From NCBI GenBank assembly GCA_002256025.1, contig NKIB01014420.1:1-43680 (forward strand): DNA of 43,680 bases, written 5' to 3'. A model generated the notes under the pieces. The model had not been told where the DNA came from and searched no databases. It saw only the letters and a list, made by a program, of their open reading frames with translations. The DNA comes from Asterionella formosa (taxonomy: Eukaryota). This document shows positions 916 through 29,885 of this stretch, one piece after another. Within the stretch, counting starts at the first letter, position 1. Every line of letters begins with the position of its first letter. A program made the translations under genes and the position numbers.

Positions 916-3139
916 TTACCTCCTCTCCAGATTTCCTACAATCTTGAACGATCTCTTTGTTTCCTTCAACGTCAGAACGTCAGCAACTTTACCCCAGAAT
1001 TTCTGGCTGCTTGATTTGGTAGGCCGTGCTTTCATGGCTATCACCCGCCTACCGCTTAATTCCGGATTAAGTTCGAGTTTGCTTCCAGCATCGAAATTAT
1101 CTGGTACCAACGTAGGAACGGGGAAAAGAAACAATAACTGTTCCCATTGTAGCCATGCACGGTAGTTCTGATGCTTCTGGAACACTGCAGCGATGCCGTA
1201 TGTAAGTAGTCCACCAAAGTAAACGTCTTGCTTCTCGAGCTGTGAACTGTCCGCGATGCCCTCCTCCTCAGCTTCCCGCCAACGCTTCTGTTCAATACGC
1301 TCACCGATTGTGAGAAGAGTGATGGTATCATGGCTTTCACTTCCGACGAGAAATGTAATTTCTGTGAAGCCGGCAGATACGAATCGCTCTTGCACTTGTT
1401 GCCGTTGGGCTTTTGTCAGTGATTGCGAGAAATGGGAAAAATATTGGTCCCACGAGTGGTTATACTCCCTTCGAATTGTCTGCTGCAGAATCATCTCAAT
1501 GATTCCGGCCTTCATCCAGCGGCCACCGTCATCCCACCAAGTTGATGCTGCGATTTCTTCATCGAGATTTAGGAGCAGCTCGAAAACGACGACGCTGCTA
1601 AGAATATTGAAGGCATCAGTAGTATTGAAAAGGATATACATGTTGTAGATGTATAACACGCATACATATCCGGTGTTCATAAACAAATCAAAGACATAGC
1701 CAAGGCTTTGCGGGAAATTATCGTTGCCATCTTCCCAAATTCGTTTGCGTATGTTTAAAATACGGGAGTAAGCTGAATCAGACCCGCAAATAATGCGTCG
1801 AAAGTTATAATCCAAGTCTCGCGTTGTTTTAAATAGGTAATACAGCAAAGTAAAAAAAAGCATCACACGAGTCCCCGCAATCAATGATACTTCTCCGCCA
1901 CCTTGTCTAGCTGCATTTATGTAGAAGATGTATAGAATAGATGGCATTGACACTTGCAGAACGAAGATTAAAAATGCATCTGTAAAGCCCGAACCCAACA
2001 CAGAAAGATAAGTATACACAGACAAGCCCACGTCTTTCAAATCCCATTGCCCACTGCTGTTGGAACGAACATCTCGCATCAAATCGAACGGCTCCATAAC
2101 GTGCTTAATCAATTCTTCTTGTCCGAACTCTCCAACGCGCAAAAAAAGATCGGCGAAATCCTTGTTCTTCGGGTTGTTCAACCAGAGATCCCATAATTCC
2201 TCAACGTACCCTTGAATGTCGAAAATCTCAAAGTCATTTTGATGACCGTCCTGAAAGCGAAGCACGTGTTCCACCCTGAGGCATGCCCATTGTTGCCAAA
2301 TCCAGGGACTGGCCCCAAATACATACAAGAGAGCGTCTTTTGGTAGGCGAACATTTTCTTCAGTCAGTTTATGGTCCACTGCTGTGGTGTAATACAAAGT
2401 TTCTTCACCCTAAAATACCCGATTAAACAAGAGCAATCGATAAGCAATAGCCACCGAAATAACACAGGTTACTATGGAGAAACAATGCTTACATGATCTT
2501 TGAGTTTGAGAGTATCTATAAGACGTTCTAGCCTCCATTCCAAATTTTCCCCTATGTTTGACACATACATGTTAGCATACACAGGGACCAGAAGAATCGA
2601 CTCTCATTTTTGCTTACCTCTTACTTCCGCCCAATCGCCTGGATAACAATAGAAAAGAAGTCAGTTGGGCACTCATGTAGTTATCACGACTTGGGATTAA
2701 ATATAGATCCTGAATGCTCACCTATGTTGTATCGCGACGGCTTTCCCTTCCGGGATGCCAAACAGTACTGGGTAATATCTTGAATCATGGGTGCATCATC
2801 TCGCGGAGCCCCAATCATGACTACCAAATTCTGTAGACGCGCCAGCAACGTAATTGCCTTTTCTACTTCGCTGTCATCACTACAGTAATTGCTTGGAAAA
2901 TCGGAATGACTCCAAATGTCACAATTATTGACATTCAACCATTCTAACAGATCGTGCAGCTCGCCTTCCGGCACGTCGCCAACATCACCTCGCGACTCTT
3001 GGTAGGACCGAATGAATGCACACAGAGCGCCGTACGTGCTACTCTCTTCTGGCACTTGAGGAACTTTAGCAGTGCATTCCGGAGTCGCATGACGCTCTAC
3101 CTGTTGAGGAACACCTCGACTCGCGGTACGAACCGGCAT
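916..3139 (-). CDS. Multi-pass membrane protein of unknown function. Exons 3139-2722, 2638-2618, 2551-2493, 2409-920/916; 3' end uncertain
   Basis: GT-AG introns 2721-2639, 2617-2552 and 2492-2410 join ORF 2684..3247 (ATG 3139) in frame to the 493-aa ORF (...NI/GDWAEVR/GENLEWRLERLIDTLKLKDH/GEETLYY...). Several hydrophobic segments. A GTAAGT donor overlaps the stop at 919-914, so a further exon near 660-840 is possible. Confidence 0.75.
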
Positions 3140-26904: not shown

Positions 26905-27698
26905 ATGATCAGCCCATCTTTTAGCTTCTTCTGCCTCATTCTCGTTCTCCTGTCCTCCAAAACATGCGTTTCTGAGAAGGTGCCCATGGAGAAGGCAATA
27001 ATTCCGAAAATGGATCCGATACCGTGAGTTTTGCTGGACCGCGAATGTTGCTGAATTCCATTTGTTCCACACAACTTACCGGTACTTTTTTCATCCACAG
27101 TATGCTCCCAGAAGTGACCAACAAGGTCTTTATAGATATATCCATTGATGGAGACGAAGAAGGCTCTGGAAGAATCGTTCTAGGTCTCTTTGGAACAGTT
27201 GCGCCGAAAGCAGTCAAGAACTTTAGAGCCCTCTGCGCTTGCGACTTTGGATTAGGAAAAATTACCGGCAAACCTCTTTGTTACAAAGGATCTACGTTTC
27301 ACCGAGTGATTCCAGATTTTATGATTCAAGGGGGAGACTTTACTCATGGAGATGGTACTGGTGGAGAATCCATTTATGGTCATCGATTTGAAGACGACGC
27401 ACTTGGGCTAGCTACAAAGCACAACCGACGATACCTCCTTTCAATGGCCAATTCGGGGAAAAATACCAATGGATCCCAGTTCTTTATCAACACAGTCAAG
27501 ACTCAATGGCTAGATGGCAAGCATGTTGTATTCGGAGTTGTGTTGGAAGGAGTAGGAGTAGTAAAGGCTATTGAACGGCAGGGAAGCAGCGGGGGTCGTC
27601 CTCATCAAATTATCCACATTCACGATTCTGGAGTGCTCGAACTAACTGAGAAGGATAAGCAACCAATCCCGGTTTCGATGCACCCAGAAAACTCCTAA
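26905..27698 (+). CDS. Cyclophilin-type peptidyl-prolyl cis-trans isomerase with signal peptide; intron 27024-27100
   Basis: Motifs [43 protein letters not shown] and [10 protein letters not shown]. Exon 1 (26905-27023) encodes a hydrophobic leader and splices in frame. Confidence 0.93.
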
Positions 27699-27771: not shown

Positions 27772-29463
27772 CTAAATTAGATCAGCCACGTCCATCGGCA
27801 TCTCAGTAATCTCAGTAGTGTAAAACTGTTCAATATCACGAAGATAACGCACATCTGCCTCAGTAAGGAAATTGATAGCAACACCCTTACGACCGAATCG
27901 ACCAGAACGTCCAATACGATGAATGTAGTTCTCGCGGTTGGTGGGCAGGTCAAAGTTGATGACCAACGAAACTTGCTGGACATCAATACCACGGGCCAGC
28001 AAATCGGTGGTAATCAACACACGAGACGATCCACTACGAAACTCACGCATAATAATGTCACGCTCACGCTGGTCCATATCTCCGTGCATACATGAGACAG
28101 TGAAATCACGTTTCTGCATCTCTTCTTGAAGCCAGTCGACCTTGCGTCGAGTATTGCAGTAGATAATGGCTTGGGTAATGGTGAGAGTCTCGTAAAGATC
28201 GCAGAGAGTCTCCAGTTTCCACTCTTCACGCTCCACAGCAATGTAAAATTGCTTGATACCTTCTAGTGTCAATTCGTCCTTCTTGACCAAAATGCGGACA
28301 GGATCGCGCATGAAGCGCTGGGTGACCTCCAGGACATCCAGCGGCATCGTCGCCGAGAAAAGGCAGACCTGGACTGTTTCAGGAAGAAACTTGAAAATGT
28401 CGTAGATCTGGTCCTTGAACCCTCTCGATAACATCTCATCGGCTTCATCCAAGAAGAACTGACGAATCGAGTCAAGACGCAGAGCCCGACGGTTGATCAT
28501 GTCGTAAACACGCCCAGGGGTTCCAACGACAATGTGAACACCGGCCTGCAGGGTGCGAATATCATCACGGACGGCAGTTCCTCCGACACATGCATGAACC
28601 TGAACGTCCATGTAGTCACCGAGTGCGACTACAACTTTCTGAATCTGCTGAGCCAGCTCACGGGTAGGCGCCAAAATCAGAGCTTGACACTCACGAAGCT
28701 TGGCGTCAAGGGTGGAGAGGGTTCCAATGGCAAAGGTGGCAGTTTTACCCTGAAGAAAGATGAAAGCAAGAATGTTAGCCAATGCGACGAAGTAAAGCAT
28801 CGAGACAACGAAAGAGAATCACTCAAAGGTCTGATTTCGAGTGTTATGTTTTCAGACATTTAGAGGGTAACTCTTATTCAGACTCGAAAGATGGTGTTTC
28901 ACATGGATCATCACTCCTTCGACAGGATTCTCCATCATGCCTCCGCAAAACTTACAGTACCGGATTGGGCTTGGGCAATCAAGTCACGCCCCAACATTGT
29001 GGGCTTGATAGCTCTCTGCTGAATAGCAGAGGGTTTTTCGAAACCGTAGGCGTAGATCCCGCGAAGGAGTTCCTCGGGGAGTTCCATGCCATCAAAGGTT
29101 TCAATGGTTTCTTCCCAGTTGGAGTCGATGTCAGCATCGGTCAATCCACCTGGGGGAGCATCATCTCCCCCCTCATTAGAAGGGGGCTGGTCACTGTATT
29201 CCAAGAAGGGCGCCAGTGTTAGAAAGGAGCGAAGTCGAAAAATAAATCCATCCGCAATCCGCAATCGTGCCCCTATCAGCTACCCTACGGTAGACTCATA
29301 ACCTCGAGAGTATCGACGAGCTACTTCAGGTCCAACTGGTGGGTGCATCGGCGCTTCGTCCTCAATCCAATCAACAAAGCGCTCACGTGCAGCATTCAGA
29401 TCTTGATGGTCTACATGGCGTCGCTGCTTATGAATCTTACCTGTAGTTCTCCTCTTCGCTCAT
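27772..29463 (-). CDS. EIF4A: Eukaryotic initiation factor 4A (DEAD-box helicase). Exons 29463-29441, 29193-28956, 28749-27772
   Basis: Motifs [21 protein letters not shown] across intron 2, [32 protein letters not shown] and [13 protein letters not shown]. The splice phases are consistent. Confidence 0.96.
28847..28920 (-). ncRNA. Intronic C/D-box snoRNA, SNORD2/snR39B-like
   Basis: On the minus strand: C box GTGATGA (28914-28908), guide CACCATCTTTCG complementary to conserved LSU rRNA CGAAAGAUGGUG, D' CTGA (28881-28878), D CTGA (28855-28852), and a flanking external stem. Confidence 0.8.
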
Positions 29464-29814
29464 CGTCAATGGCCCAAAGAGGAGACCAAAGAAGTGAGGT
29501 CCACATCAAAACCGCTGGGCAAGGGCAGCCACAGCCTGCCATTCAGAAATGCTGCCAAGAGGCAGCACACTGTGTACAATCCTACGTTGCTCCTTCGCAT
29601 GTAACTACTGGTACACTACCTGTATGTCCAGTACATATGCATACCGGTATAGCAATAGAGAATCACATGATTGATTGGTTCACATAAATGTTGCCGCTAA
29701 AGCAACAACCTCGTCCAGACATGCAGACCAGCAGACTTGCTGGTGCGGCTGCCCCGCCCCCGAAGGTATCACATTCAAGCACGTACAGACATGCAGACCA
29801 CACAACTTCCCCAC

Positions 29815-29885
29815 CCCAGGTACTGGTACCAGGTCCAGGTACCAGGTACCCTGGTAGTAAAGTAACAGGTACCAGGTACCAGGTG
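29815..29885. repeat. GGTACC(A/T) heptamer array upstream of eIF4A
   Basis: caggtactggtaccaggtccaggtaccaggtaccctggtag...caggtaccaggtaccagg. Confidence 0.88.

Follow-up and report, generated by a model that had tools for sequence, protein, structure and literature searches.

Background

Small nucleolar RNAs (snoRNAs) of the box C/D class with an antisense element to one conserved site of the large-subunit (LSU) rRNA have been described from several eukaryotes. The site is equivalent to Arabidopsis Gm812, human Gm1509 and yeast Gm803 (PMC3511168), and in vertebrates it is the target of the SNORD2-type guide, for which 28S Gm1509 in human and G1457 in chicken are given (PMC2653536, PMC3511168, PMC10324135). 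Chicken snR39B is encoded in intron 3 of EIF4A2 (PMC2653536), human SNORD2 occupies intron 3 of the same gene and modifies 28S position 1509 (PMC10324135), and SNORD2 is found in EIF4A2 in 84 of 109 vertebrates (PMC13736004). In terms of sequence families, plant snoR39BY is close to RF00055, and the human and yeast snR39B RNAs fall in RF01299 of the same clan (PMC3511168). Here we analyse a predicted snoRNA of this guide group that lies in the second intron of an eIF4A gene on a 43,680-nucleotide stretch of DNA from Asterionella formosa (contig NKIB01014420.1, positions 1 to 43,680; hereafter the window).

Conservation of a snoRNA-host pairing across eukaryotic supergroups is considered rare. 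In a survey of 44 genomes, 22 equivalent introns bear snoRNAs across eukaryotic supergroups and in none of them is the snoRNA homologous, for which constrained drift was proposed (PMC3511168). A preliminary description of the window had likened its RNA to SNORD2/snR39B, had pointed to the intron of human EIF4A2, which the literature specifies as intron 3 (PMC2653536, PMC10324135, PMC13736004), and had left descent across supergroups and convergence side by side. We used sequence and profile searches, comparison of orthologous introns and contigs of public RNA runs to investigate this element. With a probability of roughly three in four, we consider it a genuine intron-encoded box C/D snoRNA of diatoms, which has resided in the Walker-A intron of eIF4A since before the split of diatoms and chrysophytes and which shares its host with the vertebrate RNA through independent settlement.

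The host gene and its second intron

The gene lies on the minus strand and consists of exon 1 (29441-29463), intron 1 (29194-29440; 247 nt), exon 2 (28956-29193), intron 2 (28750-28955; 206 nt) and exon 3 (27775-28749, or 27772-28749 with the stop codon). Exons 2 and 3 follow from the open reading frame, with joints seen at both ends of exon 2. The joint removing intron 1 is present in 3 of the 4 public RNA runs examined, and a contig joint removing exactly the 206 bases of intron 2 in all 4. Intron 2 has GT..AG borders and is of phase 0; it splits the Walker A motif between codons, exon 2 ending in ...IAQAQSGT and exon 3 opening with GKTATF.... The product contains the Pfam DEAD and Helicase_C domains and finds its best solved relatives in eIF4A-I, at 541 bits, versus 520 bits for eIF4A-III. 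By these sequence criteria the host is an eIF4A-I/II-type gene, and the domains, the score and the 206-base joint bear out the earlier placement of the RNA in intron 2 of eIF4A. The length of 206 nt given earlier for intron 2 is right, but it is not the only long intron, intron 1 of the same gene being longer still; in intron 1 there was no Rfam match at E values up to 1 and no sign of an RNA gene.

With the last exon alone as the query, identities of 94-96% are found to proteins that bear the names Stephanodiscus, Thalassiosira, Skeletonema, Cyclotella, Chaetoceros and those of further diatoms. We conclude that the organism is a diatom and that the stramenopile assignment made beforehand was right. 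Public runs containing this stretch are labelled freshwater, lake or algae metagenomes.

Anatomy of the snoRNA and its predicted target

On the minus strand, the letters of 28814-28932 read as the preliminary description had them. From the 5' end, the element begins with the arm GAGAAUC of an outer stem (28926-28932), followed by the arm UCGAAGG of the terminal, inner stem (28916-28922) and, one base further on, the C box GUGAUGA (28908-28914). An 11-nt spacer then leads to the 12-nt D' guide CACCAUCUUUCG (28885-28896), which is separated by AGU (28882-28884) from the D' box CUGA (28878-28881). The 3' half comprises a conserved middle element, GAGUUACCCUCUAAA (28859-28873), with a small hairpin AGAG-UUACC-CUCU between D' and the next box, a degenerate C'-like box UGUCUGA (28852-28858; its assignment from alignment A1 is tentative), and an 18-nt region AAAACAUAACACUCGAAAU (28834-28851), ending in ACUCGAAAU, which is a possible second guide. 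The D box CAGA (28830-28833) directly abuts the 3' arm of the terminal stem, CCUUUGA (28823-28829), beyond which lies the 3' arm of the outer stem, GAUUCUC (28814-28820). Both stems are present in the minimum-free-energy and centroid folds; the 7-bp outer stem occurs in the window sequence only, and in its relatives the terminal stem is extended differently. For the composite motif TGATGA-N5-20-CCATCTTTCG-NNN-CTGA, the window gives a single match, and 100 dinucleotide-preserving shuffles give none.

Thus the external stem, C box, guide and D' box recognized earlier all stand, but the second CTGA (28852-28855), formerly taken as the terminal box, does not: it lies 18 nt further in, within the conserved internal element, and the box adjacent to the stem is CAGA. 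The expected size of the RNA is about 90-100 nt instead of the approximately 70 nt once anticipated. Among the eight diatom-type copies introduced below, the D box reads CUGA in five, CAGA in two and UUGA in one, with the GA invariant. In the k-turn geometry, such variants change the U.U pair into U-A, or the G-C pair into G.U. Since CAGA and UUGA keep the GA, which would still pair with U5 and G6 of the C box, both should be compatible with the fold. A second UGAUG(A/G) motif stands 12-20 nt upstream of the C box in four of the eight copies (28930-28937 in the window; also L026, L105 and L109) and is possibly a remnant, or else an alternative C box.

The guide is a perfect 12-nt complement of the eukaryotic LSU sequence CGAAAGAUGGUG, above the 10 nt that a box C/D antisense element should have as a minimum, and lies 3 nt from D'. 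By the D'+5 rule, C at 28886 selects the G of C-G-AAAG, which we take to be the residue commonly numbered Gm805 in yeast. The same complement lies about 800 nt into a fragment (L146) that Rfam scores as eukaryotic LSU rRNA; the target proposed earlier is therefore retained as a sequence-based prediction. With the longer rRNA segment ACCCGAAAGAUGGUG the duplex would consist of 12 contiguous pairs, an A.C mismatch at the third base from D', and then G-C and U-A. For this mismatch the preliminary description had offered two explanations, a true mismatch or a C-to-U change in the rRNA of this species. To sample LSU sequences, prokaryote genome contigs were scanned for the target motif; 16 of the 89 loci found look like eukaryotic LSU contaminants, L146 among them being confirmed by Rfam, and none is assignable to a diatom. 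All 16 fragments, none of them known to be diatom, have ACC before CGAAAG; the A would face a C, as a single A.C mismatch, if the rRNA of the window's species also reads ACCCG. The fragments lend no support to a C-to-U change, though one may exist in diatoms. The A is kept in copies with differing 3' halves, so that self-pairing of the RNA alone does not explain it.

In a scan of 401 bases with relaxed thresholds, the best Rfam match is to the full-length model of SNORD96 (RF00055, clan CL00072), below its gathering score at 26.5 bits (E = 0.007), and SNORD96 is the family of this clan kept in the E-value scan. The consensus of SNORD96, ...CACcAUCUUUCGGGaCUGA, aligns base for base with the guide and D' box of the window at the same spacing. 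Relatives of the window element score 30-37 bits, and plant-like loci from the metagenome scan described below, serving as positive control, 61-70 bits. The likeness to SNORD2/snR39B stated beforehand is thus upheld at the level of the guide, which is that of the snR39B/SNORD2/plant snoR39BY (Z37) group.

Conservation in the eIF4A introns of ochrophyte algae

We scanned metagenome contigs with the composite motif and obtained at least 121 loci; the scan is keyed on the snoRNA and so covers only snoRNA-bearing eIF4A genes. All counts of loci and copies given here and below are counts among the matches listed. With the window eIF4A as the query, tblastn placed the motif inside an eIF4A intron in 14 of these 121 loci, and each time the site falls between residues 86/87 and 88. 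Two pairs are identical (L025 with L017 and L110 with L020), leaving 12 distinct loci, which belong to further diatoms, to one chrysophyte and to eukaryotes that could not be placed. Immediately before D', 13 of the 14 eIF4A-hosted loci have AGT and one has AGG; in 84 of 109 copies elsewhere these three bases read GGN.

Eight distinct loci (L017, L020, L026, L032, L102, L105, L109 and L120) have the intron at the position of the window; seven of these hold complete copies, and the 3' half too is common to all seven. In the remaining four (L004, L014, L047 and L104; class II), the intron lies 5 nt further upstream; it is of phase 1 and interrupts the Gly codon of S-G-T. Class II copies have differing 3' halves and other second guides, with a canonical C' box UGAUGA in L014 and L104. 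The chrysophyte-type second guide before D in these two, UACCUCUGACAA, recurs in GGA-type copies outside eIF4A (L041, L111, L112 and L118). Its complement bears a resemblance to a conserved stretch of 18S rRNA.

To place the hosts, we used a tree of 29 rows, in which the 22 named proteins were picked from 357 for readable organism names. L014 clusters with Paraphysomonas (95/93), L004 comes out, within a 98/95 clade, as the sister of all the diatoms sampled, and L020 is identical to the Chaetoceros row; for the N-terminal exon of L047 there was no close named relative, and L104 is likewise unplaced. Among these loci, a chrysophyte, the sister lineage of the diatoms sampled and the two unplaced eukaryotes have the intron at the upstream position, and only diatoms have it at the downstream one. 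Given this distribution, a 5-nt shift of the intron on the diatom stem appears to be the simplest reading, and the snoRNA-bearing intron becomes a candidate case of intron sliding with its cargo retained. The comparison with other stramenopile eIF4A genes suggested in the preliminary description thus recovers the same Walker-A intron, but at two positions 5 nt apart within ochrophytes. As the snoRNA is found in eIF4A introns of both diatoms and a chrysophyte, its pairing with this host is old within the ochrophyte algae despite the two intron positions.

The evidence for conservation that is independent of the search pattern consists of the host gene and intron, the AGT/AGG before D', the stretch from D' to D, and the terminal stem. 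The 46-48 nt between D' and the D box are on average 0.80 identical in pairwise comparison (28 pairs, 8 diatom-type copies), compared with 0.82 and 0.75 for the 90-nt exon flanks and 0.49 and 0.55 for the intron flanks. In the terminal stem, five of eight aligned pairs are changed on both sides across the eight copies, and 87% of cells are paired, as against 30-57% in slid controls. Among 500 column shuffles, 13-16 reach the four covariation measures and 27 reach the percentage paired. The introns measure 194-316 nt, with a core of 80-85 nt in nine diatom-clade copies measured and of 70-90 nt in others. A close strain represented by the RNA run X16, about 1% diverged in its exons, shows four differences in intron 2: one falls in the 119 positions of the snoRNA, in the spacer between C box and guide, and three in the 87 positions elsewhere. 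With 10 substitutions and 3 indels in the same strain, intron 1 looks unconstrained by this comparison.

Boxes, guide and host intron are accordingly seen to be conserved in orthologous introns of other ochrophytes, as had been anticipated, the boxes and guide being in part fixed by the search pattern. Judged by motif anatomy, conservation in orthologous introns and covariation of the terminal stem, the element is a real and conserved box C/D snoRNA.

The 3' half and a possible role in cis

The 3' half is conserved and non-canonical. The middle element is invariant at GAGU.A.CCUC.A in all eight copies of alignment A1, its two variable loop positions being only C or U; it could form the small hairpin (GAG/CUC) that separates D' from the C'-like box, or else serve in an accessory way as antisense element. 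A 10-nt complement of it, UAGAGGGUGA, occurs near LSU position 200 in fungal-like LSU fragments, and a match in the organism's own rRNA would read ACAUUUAGAGGGUAAC; the window version is also complementary to the 3' end of 18S rRNA. UGUCUGA is invariant in the eight diatom-type copies, and the chrysophyte-type L014 and L104 have the canonical UGAUGA in its place; it could be a degenerate C'-like box whose GA is a possible partner of D'. Before the D box, ACU(C/U)GAAA(U/A) is kept in seven of the eight copies. The complement of this region, UUCGAGU(GU), is present in 3 of the 16 LSU fragments (L123, L164 and L188), roughly 28 nt upstream of the target; a match in the organism's own rRNA would read AUUUCGAGUGUUAUG. 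Letter for letter, the UUCGAGU of these fragments repeats the end of the D' antisense region, and it is complementary to the conserved ACUCGAA that precedes the D box. Since these rRNA complementarities span 9-11 nt, near what chance would give for the roughly 35 kb searched, we treat them as leads only. The 5.8S guide of SNORD96 was considered as the content of the 3' half and ruled out, CTGC(A/G)ATTCTGA being present in none of 20 AGU/AGG-type copies versus 33 of 84 GGN-type copies.

The stretch ACUCGAAA in the region preceding the D box is the complement of UUUCGAGU, which is situated at the 3' end of the D' guide. The resulting 8-bp self-pairing is possible in 98% of cells across the eight copies and appears in the predicted fold of three of four diatom-type copies. 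It invites the hypothesis that the element acts mainly in cis, with alternative folds, namely the pairing of guide and 3' region and the outer stem, tuning the splicing of intron 2 and with methylation guiding secondary or lost. There is precedent in human SNORD2, which pairs with its own intron and regulates the inclusion of exon 4 (PMC10324135, PMC11028025), and a 3' half conserved without a recognizable canonical second guide would fit such a role. Nonetheless we think it improbable. The pairing shows no covariation, and one of its strands is fixed by the rRNA target and the search pattern. The chrysophyte-type copies and those of L004 and L047 lack ACUCGAAA and yet keep the snoRNA in the same intron. 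Moreover, the intron outside the snoRNA is unconserved, and no alternative splice form around intron 2 was seen among the RNA-run contigs examined. A methylation guide whose 3' half may have a second or accessory antisense role, or may close on itself in a self-paired state, remains our preferred interpretation of these sequences.

Host sharing with the vertebrate snoRNA

The choice that the preliminary description had left between descent and convergence can now be weighed. [quoted passage not shown] In its favour are the same target site and host gene family in vertebrates (PMC2653536, PMC10324135), SNORD2 being in EIF4A2 in 84 of 109 of them (PMC13736004), and the demonstrably long life of the pairing within ochrophytes. 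Should this hold, the case would be the first in which a homologous pair of intronic snoRNA and host spans eukaryotic supergroups, and the pairing might have persisted through feedback of the snoRNA on eIF4A splicing, as reported for humans. Introns that shift a few bases with the snoRNA kept also mean that a differing position is no absolute proof of independent origin.

The position probably does differ. In human EIF4A2, exon 3 encodes AIQQRAI and exon 5 encodes HIVVGTPG (PMC10324135), and the exon 3/4 junction is not given in the accessible text of PMC10324135 and PMC4574758. Our comparison of the two genes thus works from an assumed junction. We take the vertebrate exons 3 and 4 to measure 133 and 140 nt, which would put intron 3 in the Gly codon of I-K-G-Y-D, 30 nt upstream of the class II position; the distance to the Walker-A introns would be 30-35 nt.

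Of the canonical, GGN-type copies, eIF4A hosts none among the 84 that come from other eukaryotes, 58 of which have at least 250 nt on both sides. Even the AGU type is mobile among hosts: a NAT10/Kre33-like gene (Pfam PF13718 and PF13725) has an intron with the copies L003 and L056 (about 1370-1408, minus strand), and an ABC transporter gene has one with L037 (2001-2042), which shows host switching within the snoRNA type. In L080 (137-237, 855-889 and 1096-1176) the AGU-type guide stands in a cluster with SNORD14-like and Am982-type (snR39/59-like) RNAs, and L083 (294-1038) is a tandem array of four AGU-type copies. Beyond the guide, which is constrained by rRNA, nothing links the window RNA specifically to SNORD2, the best family of the clan being SNORD96, and the survey of 44 genomes reported no homologous snoRNA in equivalent introns across supergroups (PMC3511168). 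Further, eIF4A genes are frequent snoRNA hosts, with four other snoRNAs in human EIF4A2 (PMC10324135) and two in frog eif4a1 (PMC8609340), so that a chance repeat among the dozens of shared snoRNA families would not be unlikely. We therefore judge common descent to be quite improbable, and regard convergence on a favoured, highly expressed translation gene as the likelier cause of host sharing with vertebrate SNORD2.

Points that weigh against a functional snoRNA of this type

Several observations count against our reading of the element as a genuine and old diatom snoRNA. The C box, ten guide bases and the D' box were fixed by the search pattern, so that conservation of these three is by construction; this includes the UGAUGA of the C box, invariant in alignment A1. 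Folding energy is uninformative, with z scores of -0.04 to -1.9 versus shuffles, i.e. not better than these; unremarkable folding energy is usual for C/D snoRNAs. No Rfam family, SNORD2 (RF01299) included, reaches its gathering score anywhere in the whole window, and the SNORD96 match of 26.5 bits falls short of the required 43. The placement of the vertebrate intron is an assumed one. As for transcripts, contigs of the RNA runs X9, X13 and X10 give no cover over the snoRNA (28798-28919), and in X16 a single 265-nt contig runs across the whole intron, maybe derived from pre-mRNA or DNA; no separate small RNA was found among the contigs of these four runs, which neither show nor exclude a mature snoRNA. 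Finally, the window copy has non-canonical features of its own, the D box CAGA, the degenerate C' box and the guide A opposite C three bases from D', any of which could weaken function.

These last features, together with the low Rfam score and RNA-run contigs without evidence of a mature snoRNA, might suggest a decaying relic that is no longer functional in this species, but that is highly improbable, as the same features are common to several diatom lineages at exon-level conservation, compensatory changes maintain the terminal stem, the D-box variants keep a pairing-compatible GA, and the close strain has its one change among 119 positions in the spacer.

Neighbouring features

Downstream of eIF4A and convergent with its 3' end lies an open reading frame for a cyclophilin-type peptidyl-prolyl isomerase (26976-27698, plus strand; Pfam PF00160, E = 2e-42), the gap between the two reading frames being only about 75 nt. 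Positions 29800-29880, upstream of where eIF4A starts, hold a short tandem repeat of a GGTACCAGGTACC-like sequence.

Conclusions and comparison with known systems

The sequence features described above allow a mechanism to be proposed for the window snoRNA. Splicing of the eIF4A pre-mRNA would release intron 2, in which the 7-bp terminal stem, extended by the 7-bp outer stem, would bring together the C box GUGAUGA and the D box CAGA. These boxes would be bound by the core snoRNP proteins Snu13, Nop56, Nop58 and fibrillarin, and exonucleases would trim the rest of the intron to leave the RNA of about 90-100 nt. The D' guide would then pair with the LSU rRNA segment (5'-ACCCGAAAGAUGGUG-3') in the interrupted duplex given above, and fibrillarin would 2'-O-methylate the G opposite the fifth base upstream of D', at the yeast Gm805/human Gm1509 site.

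As far as sequence comparison goes, the RNA is a new, divergent-3'-half member of the guide group that comprises snR39B, SNORD2 and Z37, and its home across ochrophytes is the Walker-A intron of eIF4A; searches of open-access text found no prior report of the diatom snoRNA. It adds a conservation-verified snoRNA to diatoms and shows that the pairing of a snoRNA with its host can outlast, at the least, the split between diatoms and chrysophytes. The apparent 5-nt shift of an intron together with its cargo, a clean case inside a protein motif that ranks among the most conserved known, bears on the debates over intron sliding and "constrained drift". The repeat of the vertebrate host gene, for its part, makes a useful test case of convergence versus ancestry, in which convergence is at present favoured.

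Compared with SNORD2 (snR39B; chicken GGgCD34; RF01299), the window element is likewise an intronic box C/D snoRNA with a D' guide to the same LSU site and an eIF4A-I/II host. It belongs to a different supergroup, however, has AGU before D' where SNORD2 is fully complementary, is predicted to be longer, differs in its 3' half and scores below every Rfam gathering score. Its intron lies at the Walker-A codons, whereas intron 3 of vertebrate EIF4A2 follows the exon containing AIQQRAI (PMC10324135). The plant snoR39BY/Z37 and SNORD96 RNAs have the same D' guide and spacing, with Arabidopsis Gm812 as the predicted target (PMC3511168). In contrast to the window type, a fraction of the GGN copies possesses the 5.8S second guide of SNORD96, and the plant-like copies lie in snoRNA clusters rather than in eIF4A. 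The gene for yeast snR39B, which we take to be independently transcribed, lies outside eIF4A as well. The guide of this yeast RNA is directed, like that of the window, to the equivalent 25S G, Gm803 (PMC3511168). For the Drosophila counterpart (Me28S-G980), a literature search found no paper. The closest likeness is to the ochrophyte relatives, that is, L004, L014, L104, L047 and the eight diatom-type loci, all of which have the same host, the Walker-A intron and AG(U/G) before D'; class II differs from the window in the intron position 5 nt upstream, in its phase 1 and in its differing 3' halves.

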